A stretch of 64,000 nt of DNA, from IMG/VR virus record IMGVR_UViG_3300020473_000024, positions 1 to 64,000 of that record; one strand, given 5' to 3'. The position numbers and the translations under genes were made by a program. The first letter of the stretch is position 1; every line of letters starts with the position of its first letter. Origin of the DNA: a virus. Shown here piece after piece: positions 2,989-49,443 of the stretch. The notes beneath the pieces were generated by a model. That model searched no databases. It was not told where the DNA came from and worked only from the letters and a program-made list of their open reading frames with translations.

Positions 2989-3474
2989 ATGATTGTAACA
3001 AAATACCCAGAGTGGGCTACTGAAGATACAGTAGATCCTACTACAGGGGCAGAAAATAAACTAGAGCCAATAGTAGAATTTAAGCTAGATGGCTTACAAA
3101 AAGGAGAGCCTTTACCAAGGGCTTTCCTTAATTACCAATTTAATCTAATTGACCAGTGGATAAAACAGTTAGATTCTTCTTTAAACTATAGTGTGGTTGC
3201 TCCCGATGGAGATACAACACCAGATGTTGAAGCATATTCAACCCTAGTGTTATCCAACACTAGTGCCACTACGATTACAGATTTCGATACTACTGAAGTA
3301 GAAAGGGAGTTGGTCGTTATAGCTACAAATAGCAATTCAACTATTGAAAATAACACTAACATATCTCTAGAAGGATCTACTAATCTAACTTTAAACACCA
3401 ACGATGTTATCACTCTAAGAAAAATAGAGAGCATAGGAGATGTCTGGATTGAAGTAAGTAGGAGTATCAAGTAA
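2989..3474 (+). CDS. tail fibre-associated structural protein
   Basis: P.WA...G...GEPLPRAFLNYQF N-terminus typical of tail-fibre anchor domains. Confidence 0.6.
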   Translation: MIVTKYPEWATEDTVDPTTGAENKLEPIVEFKLDGLQKGEPLPRAFLNYQFNLIDQWIKQLDSSLNYSVVAPDGDTTPDVEAYSTLVLSNTSATTITDFDTTEVERELVVIATNSNSTIENNTNISLEGSTNLTLNTNDVITLRKIESIGDVWIEVSRSIK

Positions 3475-4388: not shown

Positions 4389-5068
4389 TGGCAATAGGTA
4401 TTCAAACGAGTGTAAGCCCTTATGAAGACTTTGATGATCTGTTTGAGCAAAGGATTTCAGGAGACCCCACAGTAGCAACTACTGGTGTCCAGACCTCTGG
4501 AGGTAGTGATATAAGTAATAGATATGTTCCTCTATCTTTCGGGGGAACAGCTATTGCTAACGACACTGGTGTTCAAAACAGCGCTGGAGATGATTGTCGT
4601 GATTTGTTTGCTGGAATAGGTACAGTTACTAGGGTACAAGCCCCTTGGGATGGATTAGATTACAGTGTAAGCTCCTTAGAGTCTGGATCGTCTACTGCGA
4701 GAGCTATACTAACTTTTTCACTAAATAACGACAAGAGCTTTTTGTTTGATGACTCTGGTAGCTCAACAAACACTATTAGTGGCATTCCAGTGGCTACTGG
4801 GGATTGGCTTGATAGTGGGTCTGTTTCTAGTTATGAGGCGAGAGTAAGCCTAGTATTCGACATAAATAACGGAGGTCAGATAAACAATGAAATGTCCTCT
4901 TTTGTCAGCCTTGGGACGTCTAGATCCTTGGTGATTGACTGTGCTAACAACCTTGGTGTAACACAAAAAGCTGGTACTGCCACTGTAGAAGTAAGACGTT
5001 CTTCTGATAATCAAATTGTTTCGACCAGTACATTTAGTTTTGATGTTAGAGCCGAAGGAACTAGTTAA
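4388..5068 (+). CDS. tail fibre tip/adhesin-like protein
   Basis: Coupled to the fibre gene; internal TGVQ.S.G.D repeats; S/T/G-rich. Confidence 0.55.
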   Translation: MAIGIQTSVSPYEDFDDLFEQRISGDPTVATTGVQTSGGSDISNRYVPLSFGGTAIANDTGVQNSAGDDCRDLFAGIGTVTRVQAPWDGLDYSVSSLESGSSTARAILTFSLNNDKSFLFDDSGSSTNTISGIPVATGDWLDSGSVSSYEARVSLVFDINNGGQINNEMSSFVSLGTSRSLVIDCANNLGVTQKAGTATVEVRRSSDNQIVSTSTFSFDVRAEGTS

Positions 5069-5089
5069 TATTAACATAAGAGGTGAATA

Positions 5090-5362
5090 ATGGTTAGTTG
5101 GTTATTATTTTTAATATTTGCTTTGCTTCAAGTGGCAGATGTACGCACCACTGATAAAGCGATCTTAGAGGGTGCTATCGAAGCTAACCCTGTTGTAAGA
5201 TGGGTCATGGACAAGCTAGGAGACAGGTGGTGGTTGGTTAAACTATTACCTCTGGCTGGTGGGGTGGTGTTATTAGCCCACCAAGCTTGGATGGCTCTCT
5301 TAGTTTTAAATGTAATTTTTGGTTTTGTTGTTTGGCACAACTACAAACTTGGGAGTAAGTAA
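5090..5362 (+). CDS. small membrane protein (DUF5658-like)
   Basis: D..TT...L..GA.EANP motif plus hydrophobic helices. Confidence 0.6.
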   Translation: MVSWLLFLIFALLQVADVRTTDKAILEGAIEANPVVRWVMDKLGDRWWLVKLLPLAGGVVLLAHQAWMALLVLNVIFGFVVWHNYKLGSK

Positions 5363-5679
5363 TGTCAGCAGAGACAGGCATCTTAGCAATTTTAGTTAAG
5401 TACCTGTGGTGGGGAATAACTGCCGTTTTTGGGTTTTTATTCGCTTGGGTATTTAAGCGTATAAATGATACCTACACCAAACAGGAGACAGACGAGAGGA
5501 TCGAGTTAAGTCTCAAAGAGGTGTTAATGACAGTTAAATGGCATGGACAACAAATAGAGAAGCTAAATATCTTACTTGAGAAGATTGTCGATAAAGACAC
5601 TCAGGATGGTAAGGATATGGCGAGTCTGTCCCAGAAAGTAGATAATATTATCGAAAGGATGGATAGAGAGAGTCGCTAA
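5362..5679 (+). CDS. putative holin/antiholin-like membrane protein
   Basis: One N-terminal TM helix, then a coiled coil; upstream of spanins. Confidence 0.45.
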   Translation: MSAETGILAILVKYLWWGITAVFGFLFAWVFKRINDTYTKQETDERIELSLKEVLMTVKWHGQQIEKLNILLEKIVDKDTQDGKDMASLSQKVDNIIERMDRESR

Positions 5680-6269
5680 TGTTCACTCCTCTCTATTATA
5701 TTGTTGTGGGGTGTATCACCACCCTGCTTCAATTAAATTGGAAGAGAAGGATATACTCAGCTATGTTCTTCTTACTTCTGATATTTGCACCTAAACTAAG
5801 GGAATTATATGAAATAGACTACGAAACATTCTACTTATTATTATCTCTCGCTTGGATCTCTGTTGTCTTTATTCTAGAGAAAAATAGAGTGAGGTTATTC
5901 TTTTTCACCGCAGGAGTGGTGGTAGCCTCTCATTTTAGTGTAGATTTAATATTAAGAATTGGCAGTGTTGAGTTAGTTGTTTTTGGACTAATGTGGCACA
6001 CTTATATTGATAGGTGGGTCAGTAGAAATAAGGAGGGGATAAAGAGTGGGTCTTCTAAAGTATTGGAAATGGGGAGTAATGTTATTTTTGCTAACCGTAG
6101 CAGGAACACTATATTACTTGAACCAAAACCTCACCACCTCGTTGAACGAGAAAGAAAAACAGATCGTCAGATTAGAAGAATCGAACAAAAGCTTGCAGAG
6201 TACGATGAAGACGATGCAGGAGAGGTACGAGAATCAATCTCTGAGGCTAGAAAAACTCTCAGGGGATAG
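5679..6269 (+). CDS. multi-pass membrane protein of lysis region
   Basis: TAATG coupling with the previous gene; about 4 hydrophobic segments; 3' part overlaps the i-spanin. Confidence 0.45.
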   Translation: MFTPLYYIVVGCITTLLQLNWKRRIYSAMFFLLLIFAPKLRELYEIDYETFYLLLSLAWISVVFILEKNRVRLFFFTAGVVVASHFSVDLILRIGSVELVVFGLMWHTYIDRWVSRNKEGIKSGSSKVLEMGSNVIFANRSRNTILLEPKPHHLVERERKTDRQIRRIEQKLAEYDEDDAGEVRESISEARKTLRG

Positions 6270-20917: not shown

Positions 20918-21193
20918 TTATTCTTGCTCTTGTTCTTTTTTATTTTCTAAGATTTCTCGTGCATGTACTAAGGTCTCCGCTTCCTCATACTTGCGTTTAG
21001 TACTCTGTTCATCATAACAAGCCTTAGCAATCTTATTAAAATCACCAGCTGTGATGTTAAACTTCTGTTTAGCTACATCAGCAATATTTGATTGTAGATC
21101 CTTTAAGGCATCAATCTGAGTTTGAGCGTCTTTCCACTCTTTGATGTTCCCACGGAAACCTTCATCGTTTAAAATATACCCTTGAATATTCAT
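20918..21193 (-). CDS. putative dsDNA-binding protein (T4 DsbA/GapR-like)
   Basis: Small helical protein, I...AK..F.I....FNKIAK..Y. Confidence 0.5.
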   Translation of the reverse strand: MNIQGYILNDEGFRGNIKEWKDAQTQIDALKDLQSNIADVAKQKFNITAGDFNKIAKACYDEQSTKRKYEEAETLVHAREILENKKEQEQE

Positions 21194-34171: not shown

Positions 34172-34250
34172 ATAATACCACACCCTCTCAGCCTGTCAAG
34201 TAAAATTTTATAATAAATATTGTTGACAATGTTCTCCTAGTGAGTATTAT
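34172..34250. promoter_or_regulatory. divergent sigma70-type promoter pair
   Basis: Minus TTGACA-16-TATTAT (34172-34199) and plus TTGACA-16-TATTAT (34223-34250) at the strand switch. Confidence 0.75.
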
Positions 34251-34280
34251 ATACCTCTCGATTGTGAGACAACTTAGGAG

Positions 34281-34532
34281 ATGTACATGACTGAACAAAA
34301 ACTACAAACAATTCTATTAGCTATCCAGTGTGTTGGAGAAGGGAAAGACTTACAAGAACATATCGAACAAGTATTGGACAAACACACTGATCCAGAAGAT
34401 GTAGCTGAACTGATTAATTATGTAAAACCTAAACTAGAACAAAACTTACCATTTATGATCCATCATTACTGGTCTGTTGTTTACAACACAGCTGTTGTTT
34501 GGAGAATCGAAAACTCCTCAAACCAATTCTAA
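34281..34532 (+). CDS. hypothetical protein
   Basis: AGGAG RBS. Confidence 0.6.
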   Translation: MYMTEQKLQTILLAIQCVGEGKDLQEHIEQVLDKHTDPEDVAELINYVKPKLEQNLPFMIHHYWSVVYNTAVVWRIENSSNQF

Positions 34533-34721
34533 GACGTTTTCTCCCCTCACCCTAAGCCAACACACAGGGTGGGGGTGGATATCCTCACCACAAGCTTGTT
34601 TAACACCTTAAAATTAACTTAATGGTGTTCTGTTTGGGTAGAAAAACAAAACTAGATCCAGACAGAAAAATTATTAGAAAAAGATCTTGACATAAGGATC
34701 ATTTTCTGATACCCTATTAAT

Positions 34722-34818
34722 TATATATTATATATATATATATATATTAGATCTTTCTTTTTCTTTTATTTATTTTCTTTTTGGTACTTTTTCTTTGTTT
34801 GTTTTTCTTTTTCTTTCT
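34722..34818. repeat. (TA)n run followed by a T-rich tract
   Basis: TATATATA... about 34729-34747, then TTTCTTTT-type repeats. Confidence 0.8.
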
Positions 34819-34828
34819 AGGAGGATTT

Positions 34829-35176
34829 ATGAGTAATATTTTAAAGGCTATCTACCCACCTTTGTTGATAGCTACATTTTTCTTAGTGATGTCTTGTTTT
34901 CACTTAATATTCCTGTTTGGTTATTTTGTGATGGTGCTTGACATCTCTGCTAGATCTAAAGAATACACCTACTTGACAAGGACAGGTGATGTACGCTATG
35001 CTAAAAGAAAGATGAGAGCCAGCTGGTGTGGTAGAACAGCGGCAGTAGCGGCTATTCCAGAGATGCGTGAGTGGTATTATCAGAAGGGTTATCGGTGGTG
35101 GCACATCCTCCCTGAAGGATTCCCTTTGGTGTTCCTAAAACCAGCTTTCTGGAAAACTGTGATTGGGATTAAGTAG
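34829..35176 (+). CDS. hypothetical membrane protein
   Basis: AGGAGG RBS; SWCGR and GYRWWHILP. Confidence 0.65.
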   Translation: MSNILKAIYPPLLIATFFLVMSCFHLIFLFGYFVMVLDISARSKEYTYLTRTGDVRYAKRKMRASWCGRTAAVAAIPEMREWYYQKGYRWWHILPEGFPLVFLKPAFWKTVIGIK

Positions 35177-35187
35177 GAGATATAATT

Positions 35188-35958
35188 ATGCAATATAGTG
35201 GTATAAAAATTCATGTACCAACACCAGAAATCAGCGAGTTGGTGCAACAGAAGTTGTTTGAGGAAGGGTGTCGGTGGTACACTGGAGGCGGTGTGAAACA
35301 TACTTGCTCACATTATCTAATTGTTGATAGTTCTTACACCATCTTTCATTGTGGTGATGACAGGGAGTTTTTTCTTAATAAATCAGAAGAAAAGCAAGTA
35401 CACTACCTTCAAGTGTTGACAGGAGATGACGCTGGAGAATTGTTTACCTATGTAGGTGAGGGTAGGGTTTACTATTATCTAGGCGACTATGCTTATTGGG
35501 TAGGTGGAGGAGAACTTAGAAACACTCACTGGGGCGGCATCCATCGTTTCAGTCAGGTAGAGGCATATCTAATAGATGTTAACGAAAACAGAATAACTGA
35601 GGAGGATAGTTGTATGGGAAGTGAGGTTAATGAAATGCCTGAATTAGAGGCTGGTAAACATGTTGTTAAAATTAGATATAGTTACGAAGATGACGGTAGA
35701 TTTTACTTGGTATTAGAGAACAAAATGGGACAACTTTATGGTAAAGTAATTAATTCTCAGGAGGACTGGACAAGTAATCTTTTTGGTAATGGTTTAATTC
35801 TAGAAGTTCATTCACTGCCCTTATCAGGCTATAATTCTTTCAAGCCAAACAGTTATAACGAATCCACCCTAATCTGGCAACGAAATCCTAATGCAAAGCG
35901 TAAGGCTGAGATTGAGAAACAGATCGAGGAATTACAGAAAGAATTGGAGAGTTTATGA
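35188..35958 (+). CDS. modular hypothetical protein
   Basis: VQ.KLF..G..W N-terminal module; internal RBS+ATG at 35614. Confidence 0.65.
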   Translation: MQYSGIKIHVPTPEISELVQQKLFEEGCRWYTGGGVKHTCSHYLIVDSSYTIFHCGDDREFFLNKSEEKQVHYLQVLTGDDAGELFTYVGEGRVYYYLGDYAYWVGGGELRNTHWGGIHRFSQVEAYLIDVNENRITEEDSCMGSEVNEMPELEAGKHVVKIRYSYEDDGRFYLVLENKMGQLYGKVINSQEDWTSNLFGNGLILEVHSLPLSGYNSFKPNSYNESTLIWQRNPNAKRKAEIEKQIEELQKELESL

Positions 35959-37622
35959 GTGAGTTGATTAATCCTTTCGAGTACCCACCTACAGCACAAC
36001 AAATCGATTGTGTTAATAAGGTGCTGGGTAATCGAGTGGTAAAAATAGACGCGATCGCTGGTTCTGGAAAAACTAGCTCCCTTGAGTTGGTTGCTCATAA
36101 CTTAAAACAAAAGAGTCTCTACCTTACATTCTCCAAAGTTTTGGTTGAAGAGGCTAAAGATAGATTCCCACCTTGGGTGGAGTGCCGTACTATTCACTCT
36201 TTAGCTTTTCGGGCTGAGGGGAGGTTCTATTCTCATAAGCTTAATCGTCCTGACGGGAAGTATAAAAATGTTGCCGCTACAGGCAAGGAGATTGCTGATT
36301 TCTTTAAAATGCGCCCTGTCATGGTGGAAGAAGGGATCATTCTGAGCACAGCGTGGTTAGGTCTTATGGTGAAAAAGACTCTTGCTAAATATGAAGCGAG
36401 TGCTGATGAGTACATCTTAGATAAACACCTCCCTAAAAAGGATATTCAGGATAAGCTCAATACAGTGAAAGCGAAGGTTAAAAATAAAGAGAGTTTGGAT
36501 ATCTTTACAAAGATACATGACGGTATTTTGAAGTATGCTGGACAGTTATGGGAGGAGCGTATAAATCCTGATAGTGACGTGCTTATCACGCATGACACTT
36601 ACGTTAAGATGTTTGCTCTAACACAACCTTATCTAGATTATGATGTTATTTACATTGATGAGGCTCAGGATGTGTCTGAGGTTATGCTGTCTATCGTCAA
36701 GAATCAAGATCATGCTAAACTGGTCTTTGTAGGAGATAGAGACCAGAACATCTACTCTTGGAGGCATAGTATTAATGCTATGGCTGAAGTGGATTGTGTT
36801 CATGGGGAACTCACACAGTCATTCCGATATGGCAAAGAACTTGCTGATATTGCCAGTAAAATTCTCGGTGGTAGAGAAGTGAAAGGGTTTGATAAGGTAG
36901 ACACTAAAGTTGATTTTAGTGGCTTGATTAAGAACGATAAGTACACCAAAATCTTTAGAACCAATGGTGCTCTTCTATCTTCGGCTCTAAAGCTAATCCA
37001 AGAAGGAAAGCGTTTGAACATAGAAACAGACCTCGGTGAGTTTATCGTTATGTTGAAGTCGGCTAAGGCTTTATTCAAAGGAAAGCTCAATCAAGTTAAA
37101 CATGAGGAGATCCTGCCTTATTTGAGCTGGGCTGAGTTTGTAGAAGAGGCTGAAAATGATCCCTCGCTAGAGCGTATTGCGTCTATTGTTGAAGCCAACA
37201 AAGCAGACCACTACTTAGCTGTCCTCCGTAAACATAAGAATGTCACAAATCCTGACATTATTTTTGTAACAGCGCACAAAGCAAAAGGGCGAGAGTTTTC
37301 CAACGTCATACTAGCAGAAGATTTTAACGATGGGTATGAGGATGGTGTTTATAAGGGCTTATCTGAGGAAGAGAAACGTCTACTCTACGTAGCGGCAACA
37401 CGCGCCATTGATAATCTTGAGTACAATGAAGCTGTGGCTAACATCATAGCTGGTATTGAGACAGAGGCTAGTAAAATGTCTCATAATACGCTTCCCGTAG
37501 GTATTACAGTAACGCCAGTGAGTAATTATGACTGGAATCCTTTTAAACTACCTCATCCTAAGGGTGAGATGGCTCAGGATGCTATGGAGAGAGCTTTTTC
37601 GGAAGAAGAATCATTTTTATAA
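35955..37622 (+). CDS. UvrD/Rep-like SF1 helicase
   Basis: AIAGSGKT, IDEAQD, VGD.DQ.IY.WR, LTQSFR, TAHKAKGREF, YVAATRA. Confidence 0.92.
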   Translation: MSELINPFEYPPTAQQIDCVNKVLGNRVVKIDAIAGSGKTSSLELVAHNLKQKSLYLTFSKVLVEEAKDRFPPWVECRTIHSLAFRAEGRFYSHKLNRPDGKYKNVAATGKEIADFFKMRPVMVEEGIILSTAWLGLMVKKTLAKYEASADEYILDKHLPKKDIQDKLNTVKAKVKNKESLDIFTKIHDGILKYAGQLWEERINPDSDVLITHDTYVKMFALTQPYLDYDVIYIDEAQDVSEVMLSIVKNQDHAKLVFVGDRDQNIYSWRHSINAMAEVDCVHGELTQSFRYGKELADIASKILGGREVKGFDKVDTKVDFSGLIKNDKYTKIFRTNGALLSSALKLIQEGKRLNIETDLGEFIVMLKSAKALFKGKLNQVKHEEILPYLSWAEFVEEAENDPSLERIASIVEANKADHYLAVLRKHKNVTNPDIIFVTAHKAKGREFSNVILAEDFNDGYEDGVYKGLSEEEKRLLYVAATRAIDNLEYNEAVANIIAGIETEASKMSHNTLPVGITVTPVSNYDWNPFKLPHPKGEMAQDAMERAFSEEESFL

Positions 37623-37651
37623 CCCTGCACATAATCTTAGGTAGGTGTTTT

Positions 37652-37852
37652 ATGAAAATTATAGATGTTCTTTTAGCTGTGTTCTTTGGTCTTGATGGTG
37701 CAGAAGATGTGGTAACTGCATTGGAATCAGATCCAACCACTGCTTTCATTGATAATAATGTTAATTTATGTGAAAATATTCAAATAGATCTTGACACCGA
37801 GTGTTTGTTTGAATATGATAACTACTCTATTAACTGTGAGGAGGAATTATGA
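37652..37852 (+). CDS. small acidic protein
   Basis: RBS; coupled to the next gene. Confidence 0.45.
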   Translation: MKIIDVLLAVFFGLDGAEDVVTALESDPTTAFIDNNVNLCENIQIDLDTECLFEYDNYSINCEEEL

Positions 37853-38298
37853 GCGATAATACAATTATGTTAATTTTTATAGGGATTTGGGCTGTTAACT
37901 TCCTAATCCCTACTCTAGTGTTTTTAGGAGAAGCTTGGATCAGTTACACTTTCCGAAAAGAAAAAGGAGATCTGTTTACTAAGATCCAGAAATTAAAATA
38001 TAACTTTGTGAGACCGAGGTTTTTTGATAAAGGGGATGCAGGGTTTAGCTGGTTTTTGTTTGACGGAGTTCTAGGCGTTATCTTAATGGCGTTTGCAGGG
38101 GGTATTACAGCAAAAGCTGGTTTCGGATGGATTCTTGTGATAGTTATGCTTGTTGGTATTATCTATATCCCACGCTTTTTGGTTGACATCACTAAATCTC
38201 TTGCCTATAATCGTAAGACAGGCGAGGCTGAACGCCTAGACAAGTTACAGAAAGAGATTGAAGAAATTAAGGCTCGACAAAATGAACGGAGTTATTAA
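37849..38298 (+). CDS. membrane protein
   Basis: Three hydrophobic segments. Confidence 0.65.
   Translation: MSDNTIMLIFIGIWAVNFLIPTLVFLGEAWISYTFRKEKGDLFTKIQKLKYNFVRPRFFDKGDAGFSWFLFDGVLGVILMAFAGGITAKAGFGWILVIVMLVGIIYIPRFLVDITKSLAYNRKTGEAERLDKLQKEIEEIKARQNERSY
38183..38211 (+). promoter_or_regulatory. intragenic sigma70-type promoter
   Basis: Perfect TTGACA-17-TATAAT inside the CDS. Confidence 0.6.
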
Positions 38299-38438
38299 AA
38301 CTAGTTTAGCATTTCTTGGAGGAGCTGTTGTGATATACAGCTTCTATTTATTCTTTAAAATTGTATTGCCTTTCTTACTAATCACTGGTACAGTGGGGTT
38401 GATTGGCTACACGTATTTCAAATACTGGAGGAAATAAT

Positions 38439-39749
38439 ATGGAACTTAAGATGGGAGATTTTATTCGTACATACAAGAAGAGTTACGAAGAAGTGGAGAG
38501 CTTCTGGAAAGCTATTCAAGAAGCTGGTTGTGAGCGAGGTGAAGGGATGGAAGAACTTGAATACTTCGATGATTATGGAGACATCCTCGTATGGGATGAC
38601 GATAATACAACCTATTTTATTGATCAAGACTGTAGAACAGGTCATCGTTATCGTGATGTAACAGATGAGTTCTTTTCAGAAGAAAATACCACCAACTCTG
38701 ACCATGAGGACATGCGTGTAGTGGTTTACTACACAGATGGGTCTAGCTACACTAACAAGCAAGTGGAAGAGGTAGACGTAGACCAGAGTAAGATGTTTAT
38801 TAAAATCGCTCCTCAGGGATCTCTTCTAAGCACTGAGAAACTAGAGGCTGGTGTACAGCTACACAAAAGCATTCAAGAGCTGAGTAAGACTGTTGAGATT
38901 GACTTAGAACATGTTGCTGGTTACTGCGTTATGCGTAAGAAGAGTAAAAATGACATGTGGGCTAAATCCTTCTTTCCATTAAAACCTACTTTCAGTGTAG
39001 AGGCTAGTGTATCTGGTTTGAAAGAGAATAAAGACAAACCTTATATGTTCACTGGGCTTAACAGTGTTTTAGGATTTCCTAAACACGAGCTTCAAGTAAT
39101 TGGTTCTGGTGGAGAAGGGAAGAGTCTTATTGATGAAGCCCTTCTATTAGAAGGTGTGGCTTTCCAAACTTTGATGGATTTAATCAGCAACCCTTCCAAT
39201 TCTACGGGAGCTGGATCTGGATTTAGCCCTAACCTTACGTTAGATAACTATGTTCCAAAGGAAGAGGACATTGTTATTAACGATAAGCTAACTATGGTTG
39301 AATATAAAAAGTGGTGGAAGGTTTGCTTGGATAACGGGTTCACACCAATGTTTAATGAAATCCCTTCTACTAAGAAAAAGTTTGAGGTTACTTGCCTGAG
39401 AGGAGGTAAGATCATGAGTTCAGAGATGAGATATCATACCACCCATCGTGATGTAACACATCTGTTTACAGGGGATTCTGGAGAGGTAGGCACAGATGAA
39501 GGTGTAAAAGCAACAGCTGGTTACACTTTGGCTGATGGCTCAGATAGTGGTGAGTATTATATCGGTGATAAGTTTATTGTCATTGATTCCAGCACCTTCA
39601 GCCTACAAAGTGTTGTCTCTTTATATGGAGATGATAGATCTAGTTGTCCTTTATTCAAACTAGAGGAAGGTCATACAGACCACGACTGTTGTAATGGAGA
39701 TTTAGGGGCTTATGAAGCATGGGAAAACCTAATCCCTCTCACAAAGTAA
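38439..39749 (+). CDS. multi-module hypothetical protein
   Basis: GGAGG RBS; repeated RDVT..F module ends. Confidence 0.65.
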   Translation: MELKMGDFIRTYKKSYEEVESFWKAIQEAGCERGEGMEELEYFDDYGDILVWDDDNTTYFIDQDCRTGHRYRDVTDEFFSEENTTNSDHEDMRVVVYYTDGSSYTNKQVEEVDVDQSKMFIKIAPQGSLLSTEKLEAGVQLHKSIQELSKTVEIDLEHVAGYCVMRKKSKNDMWAKSFFPLKPTFSVEASVSGLKENKDKPYMFTGLNSVLGFPKHELQVIGSGGEGKSLIDEALLLEGVAFQTLMDLISNPSNSTGAGSGFSPNLTLDNYVPKEEDIVINDKLTMVEYKKWWKVCLDNGFTPMFNEIPSTKKKFEVTCLRGGKIMSSEMRYHTTHRDVTHLFTGDSGEVGTDEGVKATAGYTLADGSDSGEYYIGDKFIVIDSSTFSLQSVVSLYGDDRSSCPLFKLEEGHTDHDCCNGDLGAYEAWENLIPLTK

Positions 39750-39765
39750 ATAAGATCTAAATAAT

Positions 39766-39807
39766 AAGCTCATGTCTCTTGACATGGGCTTTTTCTTTAT
39801 GTATGCT
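39766..39807 (+). promoter_or_regulatory. composite terminator/promoter
   Basis: Hairpin AAGCTCATGTC-TCTT-GACATGGGCTTTT containing TTGACA-17-TATGCT. Confidence 0.65.
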
Positions 39808-39924
39808 TTGTGTATATTAATCATCTAGGAGAATACAATGATACAATTTAGTAAAAGATTTTTACCATCTGAAGATATGTTTGTCAAACAGAGTGTTGGG
39901 ATTAAATAATCAGAGGAATAAACT

Positions 39925-40398
39925 ATGAAAGAATATAGTTATGAGATGAGTAAGTATTTACCTGACGATTGTATTATTCGAGCATATTATTCGTCACAGA
40001 TTAATACGAATAAAAAGATAGGAAAGGCTAAAGACTTAGTACGTTGCGGATTAACTTCGTTCAAGATAGTAGATGACAGATTCTCCAACTATAGCAGAGA
40101 TACAGGTGAATCTTGGTATGACAACTTTGAAAAACCTCCTGTCGGGGAAATCTGTGAAGCGTATGTTGATGATGAATGGCAACAGGTTAAAATCATCCAG
40201 CACGATGGTGAGAATGTTGTATTCTCAGTTGACGGTAGAGATGGTGTTGAGTACAGAACATTGGGTTCATTGTTGTTATATCGTCCTGAATCTAAGGATC
40301 TATTTACAAGTTTGCACGATATGTTGGGACAAGAAGGTGTTGAAAATGTGGACATATTGGCTAACAAGATCAACAAGTTGGTCAAGCGGTATTATTAA
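39925..40398 (+). CDS. hypothetical protein (PPVG family)
   Basis: W....EKPPVGEICE module. Confidence 0.6.
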   Translation: MKEYSYEMSKYLPDDCIIRAYYSSQINTNKKIGKAKDLVRCGLTSFKIVDDRFSNYSRDTGESWYDNFEKPPVGEICEAYVDDEWQQVKIIQHDGENVVFSVDGRDGVEYRTLGSLLLYRPESKDLFTSLHDMLGQEGVENVDILANKINKLVKRYY

Positions 40399-40430
40399 GG
40401 AAAAATTACTCTAACTGTGGGAGGTAGTAT

Positions 40431-40652
40431 ATGACTAAAGTGATCAAAGTAGACTTTTTAAACAAATGTAGAGAAGGAGAATATGAGTATTCCCGTTATC
40501 TCTGCCACGTATGTGACAATCGCTATGAATATGACAGTCGTACCGACAAACCAGAGGATAAGATGCCCTACGTTAAGGTGCAACTACCTAAGCTGGGTAA
40601 GACAGTTAATATTTGTAAGTGCTGTGCTAACACACTCCACAGTTTATTCTAA
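40431..40652 (+). CDS. small Zn-finger protein
   Basis: CxxC...CxxC. Confidence 0.6.
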   Translation: MTKVIKVDFLNKCREGEYEYSRYLCHVCDNRYEYDSRTDKPEDKMPYVKVQLPKLGKTVNICKCCANTLHSLF

Positions 40653-40663
40653 CATCCTTTTAC

Positions 40664-40695
40664 AAAGCCCTCTGAATTATCCAAGAGGGCTTTTT
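40664..40695 (+). terminator. intrinsic terminator
   Basis: AAAGCCCTCT...AGAGGGCTTTTT. Confidence 0.8.
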
Positions 40696-41146
40696 AGATC
40701 CAATTCGATTTCTCATTTCAAATAACCTCAAAAATATATAGAAATTTTAGATCTAAACGGTTTTTTCATTTCAAAAAATTTCAAATTTTTATAGAATTTT
40801 CGCATCATTTGGTAAAAATGATCGAGGGGGGAGAGGGTGTAATGTTATAATGTAACGATCTAGAAATTACAGGCAGGGGTGGTGTTTATCTTCTACGGGA
40901 TTCAGTAGCCTTAACCTTCTATAAACAATTATAGAAAACATGGAACACAAAAGCAAGCCCTTTTTAAAATAAATTTTAAATTATTTTTGGTACAATAATT
41001 GCTACGCATACGCGCGTTAAACAAAGGGTATATATATTCCTAAAAGGAATATGTTTATAACAAATAAAATTAAAATTATTGCTTGATCTTTTCTGTGGGG
41101 TTGCTATTCTTTCGGACGTGTTCAACAAAACGTGAATAGGTGACTT

Positions 41147-41455
41147 ATGAAAACACACAAGAATAAGCAAGGCTTCACAGTTGTATCAGACGGACGTAGC
41201 AAGAGAGCAGGACGACCCCCTACAAAGTCTGAAGCGGCTTTACGCCACGTTAAGAAAATGTACGCTAACAAAGAATTTACAAGTGAAGATTTTATAAAGT
41301 CTTACCGCTTGCAACTACAGCAAGGGAAGACGCCTATTAATGTTCAAGCAGGAATGCTACTACGTAGCCTTGCCAAACGTGGGGATCTTGTCTGTCTAGG
41401 TATTAAAGAAACAACTAAACGCGGTAACAATCCAAAAATCTATAAATTAACTTAA
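41147..41455 (+). CDS. basic winged-helix-like early protein
   Basis: GRPP motif, wHTH-like C-terminus; promoter TTGATC-16-TATTCT upstream. Confidence 0.55.
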   Translation: MKTHKNKQGFTVVSDGRSKRAGRPPTKSEAALRHVKKMYANKEFTSEDFIKSYRLQLQQGKTPINVQAGMLLRSLAKRGDLVCLGIKETTKRGNNPKIYKLT

Positions 41456-41522
41456 TTGTAGGTTGACAGCATAACGTTGTATCGCTACGCTCTCACAATA
41501 ATTTTAATTGAATAGGTGATTT

Positions 41523-41843
41523 ATGAATAACTTAAACATCAGTACGGGTGAAGTTAGTTTCTACGGTTTCATGTGCGGCTATCTCGACCGCACCGAAAAC
41601 AGCGACACAGATCAAAGTGTAGAAATATATCACGATGGTTTATTTCATGTGCGTATGTTTGATAATAAAGCGCCCAATGCTGGACGTGGCAAGGGTTTTA
41701 ACGCTGGGTTGGACTGTGGCGCGTTTTGGCTATCATTCGAGCGTCTAACCGATGCGCGAAAACTATATCGAAAACTACGTACTTGCGTTAAACGTAACAA
41801 TGATTATACTAGTATTTTAGCGTTTGATAACGGGGAGGTATAA
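41523..41843 (+). CDS. early hypothetical protein
   Basis: Promoter TTGACA-17-TACGCT and AGGTGA RBS. Confidence 0.65.
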   Translation: MNNLNISTGEVSFYGFMCGYLDRTENSDTDQSVEIYHDGLFHVRMFDNKAPNAGRGKGFNAGLDCGAFWLSFERLTDARKLYRKLRTCVKRNNDYTSILAFDNGEV

Positions 41844-41847
41844 GACA

Positions 41848-42219
41848 ATGATGACGTTACAAGAGGCTTACACAAAACAATCTGAGCTAGAAGATCAGAT
41901 CAAAGAGTTACAATCAGATCTATCTGATATGAAAAACAACCCTCAACTGTGGTGGGATCTAGATGGTCAATATAATGATATGCTAGATGATTGTCATGAT
42001 CCTGTAGAAATAGCAGGTATTGAATTTTCACCAAGCCAGATTTTAGCAGAGTGTGATCCGACTGCTTACCGTTGTTGTTTTTCAGACTATTGTTCCGACT
42101 ATGACGTATATTCAATGCCTGAGTATCAAGATCGTGAAAGTGAACTAGAAGATCTAGAATCCGAGCTAGAAGAGCTAGAAGAAGAGATCGACGAACTAGA
42201 ATCTGAAGAAGAGGCATAA
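41848..42219 (+). CDS. highly acidic early protein (candidate DNA mimic)
   Basis: About 39 D/E versus 5 K/R in 123 aa; GGAGG RBS. Confidence 0.65.
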   Translation: MMTLQEAYTKQSELEDQIKELQSDLSDMKNNPQLWWDLDGQYNDMLDDCHDPVEIAGIEFSPSQILAECDPTAYRCCFSDYCSDYDVYSMPEYQDRESELEDLESELEELEEEIDELESEEEA

Positions 42220-42224
42220 CAACT

Positions 42225-42386
42225 ATGATGTACACTAAAAACCAGATCATCTCTATTGGTGGGATAGAGTTTAAAATAATTGGTTTTGTAAATAGCCATA
42301 CACTAGAGGTGGTTAGCACTGATCCAGTACCTAAGGGATTTAAACCTAAGCCTCAAACTATAGATATAAGTCAGATCGATAAGTAG
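42225..42386 (+). CDS. small hypothetical protein (53 aa, not in ORF track)
   Basis: MMYTKNQIIS...; fills the gap before the terminator. Confidence 0.5.
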   Translation: MMYTKNQIISIGGIEFKIIGFVNSHTLEVVSTDPVPKGFKPKPQTIDISQIDK

Positions 42387-42393
42387 TTTTAAT

Positions 42394-42430
42394 AAAAGGG
42401 TTTGACAGGCTCAAGCCCTTTGTTTAAGAT
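42394..42430 (+). promoter_or_regulatory. composite terminator/promoter
   Basis: AAAAGGGTTTGA...TCAAGCCCTTT hairpin containing TTGACA-17-TAAGAT. Confidence 0.6.
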
Positions 42431-42470
42431 TATTTTAGTATTAAGGTAAACAACCAATAAAGGTGACATT

Positions 42471-42884
42471 ATGAACAAGCAAGATCAGCAAGTGCAGGAT
42501 TATTTGGATAAAATAGGGGTAAAATTCACTTGTGTTTATCAAGGACAGATTATAAAACACGACTGGAACGATCAAAAAGTCAACAGTTATAGGGTGACAT
42601 TCGGTGAATATTTTTATTCATTCTATCAAGGGTTAGGGATAAAAGAAGAGCCAACAGCGGCTAGTGTCCTGTATTGTCTACTATTTGATATTCTTATCGC
42701 TGATTACTCAGTACAGGAATACTTAGATGAGTTTGAAGGCGTAGACGAATACGATCTAACAGTAGCAAGGCAAGAAGAGATAAAAGCATTGATTGAACAA
42801 TGCGGGGACTACCGACTATGTTTAACTGACACTTTCACAACTGATCAGATCGATTATCTACGTGAATTATTAGAGGACTATTAA
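42471..42884 (+). CDS. early hypothetical protein
   Basis: FYQG.G....PT..SVL.CL..D motif. Confidence 0.65.
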   Translation: MNKQDQQVQDYLDKIGVKFTCVYQGQIIKHDWNDQKVNSYRVTFGEYFYSFYQGLGIKEEPTAASVLYCLLFDILIADYSVQEYLDEFEGVDEYDLTVARQEEIKALIEQCGDYRLCLTDTFTTDQIDYLRELLEDY

Positions 42885-42885
42885 G

Positions 42886-43164
42886 ATGCAAATAACACAG
42901 ATGATTAACAGCAACGGCAATCCAGCGGCTAACCAATTTGTAATAAATACGGATAAAGGGCAATACTTTCAAAGCTATGACACGTTAATAGCTTTTAAGC
43001 CTCGCACAGGTGACACGCCTATTATTACAAGCAGTTGGGATCATTCAGCTTCAACACTGAAGCATTTAAAGCTATTTCTAGGAACTAGCTTAAGTAAGAA
43101 GGAATTACAAAAGCGGATTAAATCAGGCGCTTTAATTCTCGACAATGATCTTAAGGTGGAATAA
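42886..43164 (+). CDS. early hypothetical protein
   Basis: ANQFVI...FQSY...IA. Confidence 0.65.
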   Translation: MQITQMINSNGNPAANQFVINTDKGQYFQSYDTLIAFKPRTGDTPIITSSWDHSASTLKHLKLFLGTSLSKKELQKRIKSGALILDNDLKVE

Positions 43165-43421
43165 TGTTTAATTTATTCAAAAGTAAGCCAAATACTAGCC
43201 AAGTAGAACGCAAGTTACAGAGTCAAGAACTCATGCGTAGTAAGCTAGCTATAACACTAATTGAGCTTGAAGCGGTTGCCAGTAATGATCTAATTGATGA
43301 TCTGATGAAGTGTTTAGACATTGTTGGTAATAGCAAGCTGAAACACGGATCTTTTATTTGTGGCGGTTATAATATCGTTGTAAATGAAAATTCAATCAAT
43401 ATCGTTAAAATGACAAATTAG
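43164..43421 (+). CDS. early hypothetical protein
   Basis: TAATG coupling. Confidence 0.55.
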   Translation: MFNLFKSKPNTSQVERKLQSQELMRSKLAITLIELEAVASNDLIDDLMKCLDIVGNSKLKHGSFICGGYNIVVNENSINIVKMTN

Positions 43422-43430
43422 GGTGATACA

Positions 43431-43550
43431 ATGAAAAGAGAAATTTTACACGGTAAAAACTCACGCTTAAGCAAAGCAGAGCGCAAGCGCATCAAACAAC
43501 TACGCCAGCAACGCCAAGCCCCACGGGGTAAACAATGGCAAACTCAATAA
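43431..43550 (+). CDS. small basic early peptide (39 aa, not in ORF track)
   Basis: GGGTGA RBS; MKREILHGKNSRLSKAERKRIKQLR... Confidence 0.6.
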   Translation: MKREILHGKNSRLSKAERKRIKQLRQQRQAPRGKQWQTQ

Positions 43551-43565
43551 TATATGTATATATAT

Positions 43566-43588
43566 AAGCCCCTTAATTGGGGCTTTTT
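43566..43588 (+). terminator. intrinsic terminator
   Basis: AAGCCCC-TTAATT-GGGGCTTTTT. Confidence 0.85.
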
Positions 43589-43890
43589 AGTGCCTACCAG
43601 CTTATATTCCTTTTTAATATAAATACCCCAAAATATAAACTAAAATAGTCTTATACAGGGGTTGACAAATTCAGCATTGAGAGATCTCCCCCTACCCTAT
43701 ACAATGCCCCCACTAAAGATTAAAACCGCTTAGAATGCGTTTGAGAGCGTTTTAGAGCTATATTAGTAAAAGTTATAAAAATAACCGGTTTATTCTTTTT
43801 AATTTTAAAATAATTGCATTATCCCCTTGCATTATTCGATCACCCTACCTATACTTAGCCTACATTCATTAAATAAGTAAGGTAAACATC

Positions 43891-44181
43891 ATGGCTAAAG
43901 CAATACAGGCTCATTTCGGGACAGTTTCTAACGGACTAGGCGTTGAATGGGCTCTACGTGCGGATGGACAATGGTTTTCACGTTATCAAAACAACACACC
44001 GTATGGTGTACAATGGAGCAAATGGGCAAAGGATGATCCAACGTGGGAAACTGGCGGAACTAACGCTTATTCAGGTGAACGGTTTGAATATGACGAGCCT
44101 CGGATTGCTTGCGGCTTTTCTTCACCGTGCGAGCGTATAGACGATGATTTAATCCCGCGTTGGAGATTGCCTAACGATTGA
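43891..44181 (+). CDS. early hypothetical protein
   Basis: Own promoter TTGCAT-17-TATACT; Trp-rich. Confidence 0.65.
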   Translation: MAKAIQAHFGTVSNGLGVEWALRADGQWFSRYQNNTPYGVQWSKWAKDDPTWETGGTNAYSGERFEYDEPRIACGFSSPCERIDDDLIPRWRLPND

Positions 44182-44217
44182 TAACAATCCAACCGATTAG
44201 ACATAACATCAAATCAC

Positions 44218-44240
44218 AGGGGCGCATTAAGCGCCCTTTG
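44218..44240 (+). terminator. intrinsic terminator
   Basis: GGGCGC-ATTAA-GCGCCCTTT. Confidence 0.7.
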
Positions 44241-44533
44241 TCGTTGGTGAAGCGAAAGAAAAACAAAAAGAATAAGCGCAACCAATATCACTCCATGTCT
44301 TTATAGCCTCTCATAGCCCTTCTAAGGGCTTTATTTTTGTGTCCTAGTGCAATCATATAGCCTACTCATTTTACGCCTAGATAATGCGATTCTGTTGATT
44401 AAATAGGCGTAAAATATATATATATACATATGTTATAGGCTTTATGTGAGAGATACTGAGGACTACGGGCGAATGTATGTCGAACAATTCTTTAATATTA
44501 AAATAATTCTAGTAAGTTTAAGATTAAAGAAAG

Positions 44534-44549
44534 TGTTCCACATGGAACA
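44534..44549. other. parS-like palindrome
   Basis: TGTTCCACATGGAACA, 15/16 to the parS variant TGTTCCACGTGGAACA. Confidence 0.6.
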
Positions 44550-44697
44550 TTCTTTTAATATTAAATCAATCAATATATTTAATATTAATCGATAAAATAA
44601 GTTAGCCGATATGACCACCACAAGTGGGAATTTGTGCTAACAGTTGGTTAAATTGACTAATTTAATCAGAGCAAAACAAGCGAATAATTGAGCCTTG

Positions 44698-44725
44698 ATT
44701 GCGTATAATAAGCATTATGTTAAAT
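44698..44725 (+). other. dif-like XerC/XerD recombination site
   Basis: ATTGCGTATAA-TAAGCA-TTATGTTAAAT; 11-6-11 layout with an exact XerD arm. Confidence 0.75.
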
Positions 44726-44814
44726 TTAATATTAAAGCCTTGATATTTTGGAATTATTGAGGTTTGACGCAGGACAGAAGGGGACTGTGTTAAACACCTC
44801 CCACGCCCCTACCT

Positions 44815-44888
44815 AGATATTTATTTCTCAAGGAGGAGATATTTATTTCTCAAGGAGGAGATATTTATTTCTCAAGGAGGAGATATTT
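44815..44888 (+). repeat. 3.4 x 22-bp perfect tandem repeat
   Basis: AGATATTTATTTCTCAAGGAGG at 44815, 44837 and 44859, plus a partial copy at 44881. Confidence 0.95.
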
Positions 44889-45559
44889 TTACAAAGAGAG
44901 GATAAGCTCTAGGAGAGCCTATAACAGCTCGGATATTTTAGGATAGGTGGTAGGAGGATATTTTAATATTAAGCTCTTAGGGAGCTGTACAGAGCATCTG
45001 AGGTGAATATCTTAGGGTATGTGTTGGTTTGTTTGTAGAAGAGGGGAATAAAACAGGAAAAACAGGGATATTCTGTAAACAGAATGAGGGATATTTTGGT
45101 ATGTGATATTTTAGTGGAGCGCCATGTATCATGGCTACTCCAGAGAATATAGAGTCCCTGATATTTCAGTGTTTGTTTTTACTTCTGTTTTCACTGTTAA
45201 GAACAGTGGTTTGTATTGGTATTTCCGATTATAACATTTTATTAACAATTAAAGAAAACACGACACTTACAATTTTTACATGTCTTCATAGATTTACTAT
45301 CTTCTTTTGTTAAAGATTTTATCTTCCCAGAGGGTTTTAACTCCTCTTTTGTTTGTGGTGTAAGACAGCGGTAGCAGATTAACATATCAACTCTCCTCTA
45401 TCAACTCATATACTCTGTCTAGCACTTCCTGATTATCCTCTTGCTCATCCAAAGAAACACCTTCTATCCAGCTCCACTCAATCCCACCTCCCCCAATTTT
45501 AAGGAAGTGGTGTTGTAGGATGTGTTTTAATATATCTGTGTCTGTCATGTTTATTCTCC

Positions 45560-45850
45560 TTAAAACAGTTTAATACTATCAGCCAATCGTTTAAGTTGGT
45601 CTTCCCCTTGTGTATAGAATCTCTGTTTAATCAGATAGCACAACTCAATCTCATCTTCTGGAGATAACCCCTCAAACACCTTCTTTGGATATAAATGTTC
45701 TCCTTTGTTGTCAATGAGGGCAACAATACCGTCAGGGAGGCAAGGATTCTCCAATGAATATCGTTCATAAGTATTATCACGATCTATCGAAGTTAGCTTC
45801 TCTACAATTGTGTCAGGATGATTTATCAGACGTATTAAATGTTCTCTCAT
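45560..45850 (-). CDS. hypothetical protein
   Basis: ORF with RBS. Confidence 0.55.
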   Translation of the reverse strand: MREHLIRLINHPDTIVEKLTSIDRDNTYERYSLENPCLPDGIVALIDNKGEHLYPKKVFEGLSPEDEIELCYLIKQRFYTQGEDQLKRLADSIKLF

Positions 45851-48693: not shown

Positions 48694-49443
48694 CTACTGT
48701 CTATAGTCGGTTAGTGTAAACAGCTTTTCAGTCGCTTTCTTAGCACCTGTATTTTTGGTTAGGCTGGAGTTAACATCTTTCTCCCACACACATACAAAAT
48801 CATCGGGTGCATTATATTCACTGACAAATATTGTGTGACCTTCTGCGTGTTTTTCTCGACACCACTGCCAGAACTCATCATGGTTGAATTTGGTTCTAGC
48901 TTCTCTATACTCTTTCGTTCCGTAGTACGGAATATCACAATACACTAAACTATTTGGTGGTAACTCTAAGTCTAAATAATTACTATGGCAGAATTTAACC
49001 CCCTGTAAATTGACAGATTGTTTAACTACATTTTTATAAGCTTCGTTAGGATAATCTCTAACTTTACCTTGCTTAGTTGTAACAACACCAGCGTAACCAC
49101 CGTCAAAAAATCTACCATTGTAGCTACCATTCACACCAATATAGCCAGTCAGGTACGGTTCTGATATATCACCTTTATAGTACATCTGTCTATGTTTATC
49201 ATAAGTCGGTTTATCTATATGTTCTGGTGGAATCCACCCCTTAGATAACGCATCAAGCATAGCGATAACATAGTAATTGATATCAGCCCCAATCCGCTTA
49301 CCTTCAACCTTGTCAATGACGTTCGCACCACCAACAAACGGCTCAACGTACCACTGGTCAGGCTTCCGATCTTTTAAAATAATCGGCAAAATGTGTTTTG
49401 CGTGTCTAGATTTACTCCCCATGTATTTCATATTATTCACCAT
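48694..49443 (-). CDS. DNA adenine methyltransferase (D12/Dam-like)
   Basis: Y.GSK, EPFVGG, YCDIPY (DPPY variant), SEY. Confidence 0.88.
   Translation of the reverse strand: MVNNMKYMGSKSRHAKHILPIILKDRKPDQWYVEPFVGGANVIDKVEGKRIGADINYYVIAMLDALSKGWIPPEHIDKPTYDKHRQMYYKGDISEPYLTGYIGVNGSYNGRFFDGGYAGVVTTKQGKVRDYPNEAYKNVVKQSVNLQGVKFCHSNYLDLELPPNSLVYCDIPYYGTKEYREARTKFNHDEFWQWCREKHAEGHTIFVSEYNAPDDFVCVWEKDVNSSLTKNTGAKKATEKLFTLTDYRQ

Follow-up and report, generated by a model that had tools for sequence, protein, structure and literature searches.

We analyzed a stretch of 64,000 nucleotides, hereafter called the window, that corresponds to positions 1-64000 of the 85,011-bp IMG/VR record IMGVR_UViG_3300020473_000024, and we focused on a gene-free gap in which a dif-like site, with arms of the XerC and XerD type, lies near a parS-like 16-mer. 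The record comes from a marine metagenome, is rated 99% complete, and has no end repeat. It carries myovirus genes (terminase, portal, protease, major head protein, tail sheath, and tape measure) together with a virulent-type set composed of ribonucleotide reductase, a family-A polymerase, a T7-like primase-helicase, a second helicase, DNA and RNA ligases, and NAMPT; five tRNAs are present in the window. A plus-strand structural block extends from 66.7 kb over the record ends to ~6.9 kb, and the remaining genes form a minus-strand block (7.1-34.2 kb), a plus-strand block (35.2-44.2 kb), and a second minus-strand block (45.2-66.3 kb). The last two converge on the gap (44182-45241, 1,060 bp), which, according to the lists of open reading frames (ORFs), is bounded by the end of the last plus-strand ORF at 44181 (arm 35188-44181) and by the end of the last minus-strand ORF at 45242 (arm 45242-66281). 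This gap is the largest gene-free stretch in the record, and its G+C content is 0.30 in 44482-44844. A blastn search in distant mode with 44200-45400 against 50,697 phage records returned no match.

A preliminary description, made from the sequence alone, had placed at this convergence a hub of host chromosome-maintenance sites in a lytic phage. All the elements that it listed were recovered at their positions: a parS-like 16-mer, a dif-like site said to lie ~150 bp from it (148 bases separate the two), five palindromes, three 22-bp repeats, and a GATATT array. First-order Markov simulations of the record took as given the free choice of famous motifs made in that description. In none of 300 runs was the observed value attained for a parS-type match with one mismatch at most, for a dif-arm match with three at most, or for the clusters of palindromes and of GATATTT. 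The statement that no ParA/B, Xer, or integrase gene is recognizable also held, since a six-frame search of the whole record found no tyrosine recombinase (PF00589), ParB N-domain (PF02195), FtsK gamma (PF09397), or DUF3653 (PF12375). The only match to the ParA-type family PF13614 was the P-loop of the primase-helicase, under the cut-off.

A dif-like site with host-type arms and a private spacer

The dif-like site occupies 44698-44725 on the plus strand and consists of an 11-bp XerC arm, a 6-bp spacer, and an 11-bp XerD arm with partial dyad symmetry, which is the build described for XerC/XerD core sites (excerpt of PMC5357621). The XerC-type arm ATTGCGTATAA (44698-44708) is that of the dif site of Idiomarina loihiensis, reported as ATTGCGTATAATGTATATTATGTTAAAT (excerpt of PMC2731167), and the XerD-type arm TTATGTTAAAT (44715-44725), which occurs once in the record, is that of the dif sites of Escherichia coli, Pseudomonas aeruginosa, and Idiomarina. 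Thus, the phage arms and those of I. loihiensis dif are equal at 22 of 22 bases, and only the spacer, TAAGCA in the phage (44709-44714), differs. The 215 bases on the XerC side of the site hold the 16-mer and three of the palindromes.

We then looked for the two arms, ATTGCGTATAA-N6-TTATGTTAAAT with any spacer, in GTDB (one genome per species) and found them in at least 120 loci. Among the matches listed (122 sites), the spacer was TGTATA in 57 and TATATA in 10, but TAAGCA in none; the phage spacer has only its first and last letters in common with TGTATA. Many of these sites are on large contigs of Glaciecola, Idiomarina, Pseudidiomarina, Marinobacter, and uncultured marine Gammaproteobacteria, and the remaining ones include Acinetobacter plasmid-type sites with other spacers. 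The arms therefore match the dif sites of the candidate host lineages, marine Gammaproteobacteria. A chromosomal dif would have the spacer TGTATA or a close one, would lie at the replication terminus, and would be activated by FtsK, whereas this site has a spacer private to the phage and sits on a phage replicon. We regard the dif-like site as very probably a genuine XerCD site that is retained for recombination between phage copies.

Dif-type sites were also found in at least 119 IMG/VR loci, mostly short, and none of the 119 listed is a relative of this phage by tblastn. Three of them (L053, L062, and L065), which belong to another phage, have the same two arms around the spacer TAAGTA, one letter off TAAGCA. 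Their site (position 3823 of L062, in site orientation) sits in a ~900-base A+T-rich gene-free stretch, and they share no protein with this phage at an E value of 1e-5.

The preliminary description had suggested testing co-conservation of the sites in relatives and covariation with host parS and dif. Four of 14 related records tested carry a dif-type site. The Pseudomonas phage vB_PsaM_M1 (M1), a distant relative from seawater that is 89 kb long, gives the second-best match to the primase-helicase (45%) and has 19 collinear ORFs in common with this phage, in the same block order. At the syntenic place, between a plus-strand block of small genes and a minus-strand block with the ligase and RNA ligase, M1 has an 866-bp gene-free gap that contains TTCGCATAA-TGGTCA-TTATGTTAAAT. 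The dif site of PAO1, GATTCGCATAATGTATATTATGTTAAAT, equals the whole XerD arm and the inner 9 bases of the XerC arm of M1, and its spacer is another one; M1 thus likewise combines arms of the host type with a spacer that departs from the host. In the rV5-like phages (Vequintavirus), HdK5 (MK373780.1) and APECc02 (NC_041869.1) both have the arms of E. coli dif, GGTGCGCATAATGTATATTATGTTAAAT (PMC3025954), around the spacer TGGGTA; in the coliphage APECc02, the site GGTGCGCATAA-TGGGTA-TTATGTTAAAT lies in a 2.6-kb gene-poor convergence zone. The fourth record, phiPMW of Pseudomonas putida, has a looser site with 2 mismatches, TCCTATAA-TCTGCA-TTATGTTAAAT, in its own convergence zone. The stretch of phiPMW that holds this site (20944-20969, or 6145-6170 of our locus L405) was labeled "putative phage specific promoter" on the minus strand by its depositors. 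As a control, the reversed pattern gave no match in 5 records. Together, these sequences describe a trait that is patchy among relatives, yet built alike where it is present.

The rV5-like phages resemble the present phage in several respects: a gene-free convergent zone, host arms with a non-host spacer, and a GATATTT cluster on the XerD side and on the same strand. In the present phage, the array comprises 10 copies of GATATTT and one GATATTC (at 45067) in 44742-45166 on the plus strand, which represents 10 of the 23 plus-strand copies of GATATTT in the record and none of the 14 minus-strand copies. APECc02 has GATATTT on the same strand after its site at positions 3417, 3570, 3735, and 3750 of locus L262, and this cluster (34916-35255 of the genome) accounts for four copies where the forward strand of the 135-kb genome has 25. 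Of the 19 forward copies of AGATATT in M1, three fall in the 200 bases past the XerD arm, and phiPMW has one GATATTC. The GATATT(T) cluster on the XerD side is thus common to this phage, M1, and APECc02. When the gap was compared with that of APECc02, the best two local matches were the XerD arm and then GCCTTGATATTT, in the same order in both. The rV5-like phages differ from the present one by their 2.6-kb gap, the lack of a parS-like 16-mer, and their hosts.

The linear HdK5 record gave an indication of where such a site may stand in the virion DNA. Its first 459 bases are identical to its last 459, and the dif-type site is inside this repeat. Projected on APECc02, the repeat covers L262 3007-3466, with the site at 3270-3297; the first GATATTT copy of the cluster is inside the repeat, and the other three are just outside. 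By comparison, the repeat of the rV5-like phage that carries the site is visible in the record, whereas the record of the present phage has no end repeat. An annotated gene next to the rV5-like gap, gp064 of APECc02 (L262 1613-1876), is labeled "DNA translocase FtsK." We considered it as a phage-borne FtsK-gamma activator and dropped it, as Pfam showed neither FtsK_gamma nor any other family above the cut-off.

TerL is 39-52% identical to its counterparts in HdK5, Felix O1, Fifi318, PAK_P3, M1, and phiPMW, with 45-52% for the rV5-like phages. Sixteen ORFs are in common with phiPMW, 9 of which were not found in M1, among them a TerS-like 114-residue protein encoded just upstream of TerL (68412-68756 of the record). 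Relatives of the phage ligase in IMG/VR and JGI metagenomes reach only 37-53% identity, and a relative that is 72% identical is encoded on an 86,216-bp NCBI contig. The contigs with a 53% identical ligase (L244 and L248) have only 3 ORFs in common with the phage and no comparable gap.

The parS-like 16-mer and the other elements of the gap

The 16-mer TGTTCCACATGGAACA (44534-44549), found once in the record and flanked by A and T tracts, matches at 15 of 16 positions the parS site TGTTCCACGTGGAACA of Idiomarina, Pseudidiomarina, and Marinobacter genomes. Its center is CACATG, in contrast to CACGTG in the host-type site, and this G>A change hits a CG step that was retained in 8/8 parS sites of 5 candidate-host genomes. 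Parallel counts in 151 genomes of the candidate-host order yielded parS with a CACGTG core in 104 and the CACATG variant in 8. Since four of the five variant sites examined were inside ORFs, we rejected the idea that the variant is a second type of centromere in this order. In two genomes of the order (L412, positions 471 and 1095; L415, position 3030), the variant stands 25 bases from the end of a ~357-aa ORF, and part of its occurrence in bacteria, perhaps also on phage contigs, may reflect a conserved coding motif.

Phage sequences showed a different picture. The identical 16-mer occurs three times in phiPMW, which has no canonical parS, and two of the copies are 200-430 bases before the dif-type site. 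It was absent from 10 other records (M1, Phab24, Shewanella 1/40, KLEP7, PWH3a-P1, APECc02, Felix O1, PAK_P3, Fifi318, and 2L372X), and it is thus shared with one relative among those tested. At least 120 IMG/VR contigs contain the 16-mer, several in 2-4 copies, and none of the 120 loci listed is a relative of this phage by tblastn. The matches listed comprise 114 distinct occurrences, and 63 of these fall between genes although coding sequence makes up 87% of the loci. From the recurrence of the identical variant in phiPMW, we conclude that the 16-mer is a specific site for a protein, which may be one other than ParB. As phages of two host orders depart from the host optimum in the same way, a binder with a preference for the variant seems indicated. 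Binding by ParB itself appears doubtful, though it is worth considering. We found no paper holding the 16-mer among open-access papers and bioRxiv full text.

One unrelated tailed phage (L018 of IMG/VR, 24,730 bases) has two perfect canonical parS sites at 4856-6180. Between one of these and a dif-type site (spacer CAACCA) that follows it are 77 bases, and the pair lies in gene-free DNA immediately upstream of the terminase genes.

The 16-mer is predicted to fold into a hairpin, at -10.7 kcal/mol on each of the two strands, and T-rich tails flank it left and right, so that it could serve here as a two-way terminator. Two other sites in the gap also combine a G+C hairpin and a T run by consensus scan and folding, and are predicted intrinsic terminators: a G+C-rich hairpin at 44220-44236 on the plus strand (-14.9 kcal/mol), the likely terminator of the plus arm, and a second hairpin at 44315-44330 (-8.8 kcal/mol). 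At the right edge of the gap, a hairpin with a T-rich tail on the plus strand (45191-45209) folds with -7.2 kcal/mol on the minus strand, where no U tract follows.

The five TTTAATATTAA(A) palindromes are at 44491-44502, 44554-44565, 44578-44588, 44725-44736, and 44962-44972. By motif count, TTAATATTAA has 9 copies in the record, 5 of them within 44492-44972, and 5 of the 6 forward copies of TTTAATATTAA are in the gap; the palindrome motif was not found in M1. The 22-bp repeats are three exact tandem units of AGATATTTATTTCTCAAGGAGG on the plus strand (44815-44888), an expansion of a GGAGG-AGATATTT motif.

To look at variation among strains, we compared assembled contigs of three runs over the gap, X2 (same strain) and X3 and X5 (diverged strains); divergence figures refer to X5, among the changes listed, which appear complete away from piece ends. 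X5 differs from the record by 14 substitutions and 2 indels (4.8%) in the core of the gap (44482-44813), compared with 4-11% in the flanking genes. The left edge of this better-kept core is a hypervariable patch (44445-44481), in which X5 has 16 substitutions and 1 deletion in 37 bases (46%); X3 has the same changes. No change in X5 was listed in the 16-mer or in the arms of the dif-like site, and there was one in the spacer (G>C at 44712). This conservation fits a constraint on the arms and the 16-mer, and the indication is weak at the level of strains compared here. In contrast, the contigs of X3 and X5 skip 44845-44912 and have there 23 other letters that keep one GGAGG-AATATTC-like unit, which shows the 22-bp array to be a local, strain-specific expansion. 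The preliminary description had counted these repeats as a component of the hub, and this part was abandoned.

In X2, two successive contigs overlap by only 14 bases beside the hypervariable patch, the first ending at 44467 and the second beginning at 44454. With a depth of ~9, this may be a chance break, although a physical DNA end is conceivable.

The surroundings of the gap were also examined. Small ORFs called inside the gap were rejected, as a related strain has 10 gaps in 45023-45247. An Rfam search (E up to 1) found nothing inside the gap and two weak matches outside, at 43058-43588. For the small ORFs on either side, Pfam gave no family and PHROG only families of unknown function. The last plus-strand ORF (43891-44181, 96 aa) has no family either and stands between a promoter-like site (43677-43705) and the G+C-rich hairpin. 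Left of 44212, two related strains differ in sequence, so that this ORF looks like variable or exchangeable cargo at the gap edge. No GATC occurs in the gap, compared with 3.8 expected, and a DNA methyltransferase (phrog_56, E value 6.5e-37) is encoded 3.4 kb off the gap at 48694-49443. Elsewhere in the window, the divergent, gene-poor region at 34181-35188 shows the lowest G+C content (0.343 in 34-35 kb) and the minimum of the cumulative GC skew, and is a candidate origin or early promoter zone.

A possible link between host XerCD and the ends of the phage genome

We propose that the gap is a cis-acting DNA-handling region with a functional XerC/XerD core site at its center, rather than a collection of look-alikes, and we assign this reading, which is built from sequence comparisons, a probability of about 50%. 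The sequences, the host-type arms, and their recurrence and location in relatives are observed, whereas binding, recombination, and the location of the ends are predictions. Host XerC and XerD would bind the phage site through its host-type arms. Tyrosine recombinases require matching spacers; therefore, XerCD would recombine one phage copy with another phage copy, and not productively with the chromosome. By analogy with the rV5-like phages, each virion DNA would carry the site in both end repeats, and XerCD acting between these end copies would circularize the injected linear DNA or resolve multimers. In phage P1, Cre-lox recombination between the copies of the terminal redundancy closes the injected linear DNA, but P1 encodes its own recombinase, whereas here the enzyme would be that of the host. 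The GATATTT array on the XerD side would be a conserved flank element of the junction, perhaps a packaging signal. The 16-mer would be a separate sequence-specific protein site, here also a two-way terminator hairpin, with host ParB as one candidate binder.

The location of the rV5-like site inside a short terminal repeat leads us to infer that the gap holds the genome ends or a concatemer junction, for which we consider the chances about even. In agreement, TerL belongs to a clade that packages with short terminal repeats, as judged from the HdK5 repeat and from papers: such repeats are reported for Fifi106 and Fifi318 (excerpt of PMC11984208) and for PAK_P3, which circularizes 3-10 min after infection (excerpt of PMC13510664).

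Several observations weigh against the proposal. No Xer activator (FtsK-gamma or DUF3653) was found in the six-frame search. Among the 14 related records tested, the trait is limited to the four above (APECc02, HdK5, M1, and phiPMW), and no dif-type site with up to 3 mismatches was found in Felix O1, Fifi106, Fifi318, PAK_P3, KLEP7, PWH3a-P1, 1.063.O, Phab24, Shewanella 1/40, or 2L372X, a lone 3-mismatch match in 2L372X being offset by 2 control matches. With a divergence of 4.8%, chance alone would leave 38 positions unchanged in ~15% of cases, which makes their conservation weak evidence. With regard to the ends, the analysis covered assembled contigs, and their position is a prediction. The depth of X2 over 44454-44844 was 11, compared with 9.4 and 8.8 on the two sides, a ratio of 1.2 and not the 2 that a repeat in virion DNA should give; the contig depth ratios of ~1.6 in X3 and ~3 in X5 could result from several strains sharing the core. 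Lastly, the Fifi318 record was arranged to begin at the predicted end, and this start falls 1.3 kb upstream of TerL rather than in a gap between convergent arms, so the ends of the present phage could lie near 66-68.7 kb.

The preliminary description had interpreted the hub in another way: the 16-mer would load host ParB (and SMC) and the dif-like site would recruit XerCD, so that the replicating DNA of the phage is placed and resolved in the manner of a small chromosome, or these factors are drawn off the host chromosome. A location of the physical genome ends in the gap was not considered there. The XerCD half of recruitment in cis gained support from the identity of the arms with host dif and from the recurrence of the site in M1, phiPMW, and the rV5-like phages. 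The evidence on the ParB half is divided. In its favor are the 15/16 match to parS of likely hosts, the three copies in phiPMW with two near the dif-type site, the pairing of a perfect parS with a dif-type site in L018, and the intergenic bias of the 16-mer in IMG/VR. In addition, phi29 and Nf are lytic phages that carry host centromere-type sites without a ParB of their own; the five parS sites of phi29 are used via host Spo0J, which binds them (excerpt of PMC2731898). However, here there is a single candidate site with a changed center, and the variant departs from host ParB sites at a step that these keep. It is rare in genomes of the host order and mostly coding among the sites examined there, and it is missing in M1 and the rV5-like phages as well as in the other records listed above. 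Moreover, a dif-type half site was present in 1 of the 120 listed IMG/VR loci that carry the 16-mer. Titration of host factors is improbable as single sites cannot titrate abundant proteins, and overall we regard this combined explanation as unlikely.

A second alternative is that the gap is a replication origin, with the 22-bp repeats and GATATTT as iterons, the 30% G+C core as an unwinding region, and the dif- and parS-like matches as by-products. Direct repeats at 22-bp spacing, arrays on one strand, low G+C content, and the location in the largest gene-free stretch would suit an origin, and a single replication start and circular molecules were inferred for PAK_P3 (excerpt of PMC13510664). 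On the other hand, the 22-bp array is absent from the two related strains, the gap has no DnaA box (allowing up to 1 mismatch), and no initiator gene was recognized beside it. Furthermore, the homologous layout in HdK5 is at the physical ends, and an origin leaves unexplained the host-matched dif arms in three phage lineages. As an account of the whole gap we find it rather improbable, although an origin is compatible with a XerCD site in the same region and does not exclude it.

The gap could also be an ordinary zone of convergent terminators, in which the palindromes are terminator hairpins and the matches to famous sites are due to chance. Indeed, 9 terminator-like sites were found in 43300-45700, compared with 1.3 expected, and the hairpin of the 16-mer with its tails would fit such a function. 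Yet none of the 300 simulations gave a dif- or parS-type match, the arms are exact copies of real dif arms in a site that recurs syntenically in M1, and the exact 16-mer recurs in phiPMW. Among the 114 listed IMG/VR occurrences of the 16-mer, a T-rich tail is present on a single side in 14 and on the two sides together in none; the paucity of such tails indicates that a terminator role does not explain the retention of the 16-mer. We therefore judge this explanation very unlikely. It is scarcely credible that the phage is an integrative element exploiting Xer (IMEX) and uses the dif-like site to enter host dif, for although dif-type sites are found on many viral contigs and filamentous phages and gokushoviruses integrate in this way (excerpts of PMC4246890, PMC7062461, and PMC5357621), the spacer matches TGTATA only at its end letters, a search of 185,579 species genomes with patterns of the phage ligase turned up no relative and hence no integrated form, the gene content is virulent, with tRNAs alongside the replication and nucleotide genes, and the same build sits in the end repeat of the strictly lytic rV5-like phages.

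Known Xer sites offer further points of comparison. IMEX sites (CTX-phi, VGJ-phi, TLC-phi, the gonococcal island, and gokushoviruses) are also dif-like sites for host XerCD (excerpt of PMC5357621), but they keep spacer homology on one side, integrate, and often have a degenerate arm, whereas both arms of the present site are perfect, its spacer is foreign, and no integrated copy was found in the species genomes searched. Besides integrating elements, Xer sites are known on plasmids, namely the multimer-resolution sites cer of ColE1 and psi of pSC101, which resemble the phage site, as proposed here, in having a replicon without recombinase, a non-dif spacer, a non-coding context of a few hundred bases, and recombination of copy with copy (excerpt of PMC5357621). 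At cer and psi, host XerCD acts with PepA and ArgR or ArcA, for which accessory sequences lie on the XerC side. Unlike the phage site, cer has an 8-bp spacer and ~180 bp of PepA/ArgR accessory sequences, and the carrier here is a lytic-type phage; no accessory boxes of the cer/psi type were recognized in the gap, where no model-based scan for them was made. Exploitation of Xer by foreign DNA is thus known from plasmids and integrating elements. Among open-access papers and bioRxiv, none came to light that deals with Xer sites of virulent tailed phages, with such sites in their end repeats, or with the dif site of rV5-like phages.

Extended to other phages, the proposal would be that lytic tailed phages widely keep a host dif with a private spacer at their DNA ends, at which XerCD would close or resolve their DNA and leave the chromosome untouched. 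In some, such as this phage and phiPMW, the site would be accompanied by a phage-specific CACATG variant of parS, which would engage host ParB or a mimic and organize or protect the incoming genome. This generalization is speculative, and we would not expect it to hold in full.

Circularization of phage genomes is usually credited to homologous recombination of end repeats. If the proposal is true, virulent phages of three host groups rely instead on a housekeeping recombinase of the host to circularize or resolve their genomes. In that case, xerC, xerD, and the phage site would become testable factors of host range and fitness in culturable relatives, the rV5-like phages of E. coli and M1 and phiPMW of Pseudomonas. 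The 16-mer that this phage has in common with phiPMW would be a second phage DNA signal, mostly intergenic in metagenomic phage contigs. Finally, the arms of such sites could predict the hosts of uncultured phages, and for the present phage they point to marine bacteria of the Idiomarina/Glaciecola kind.

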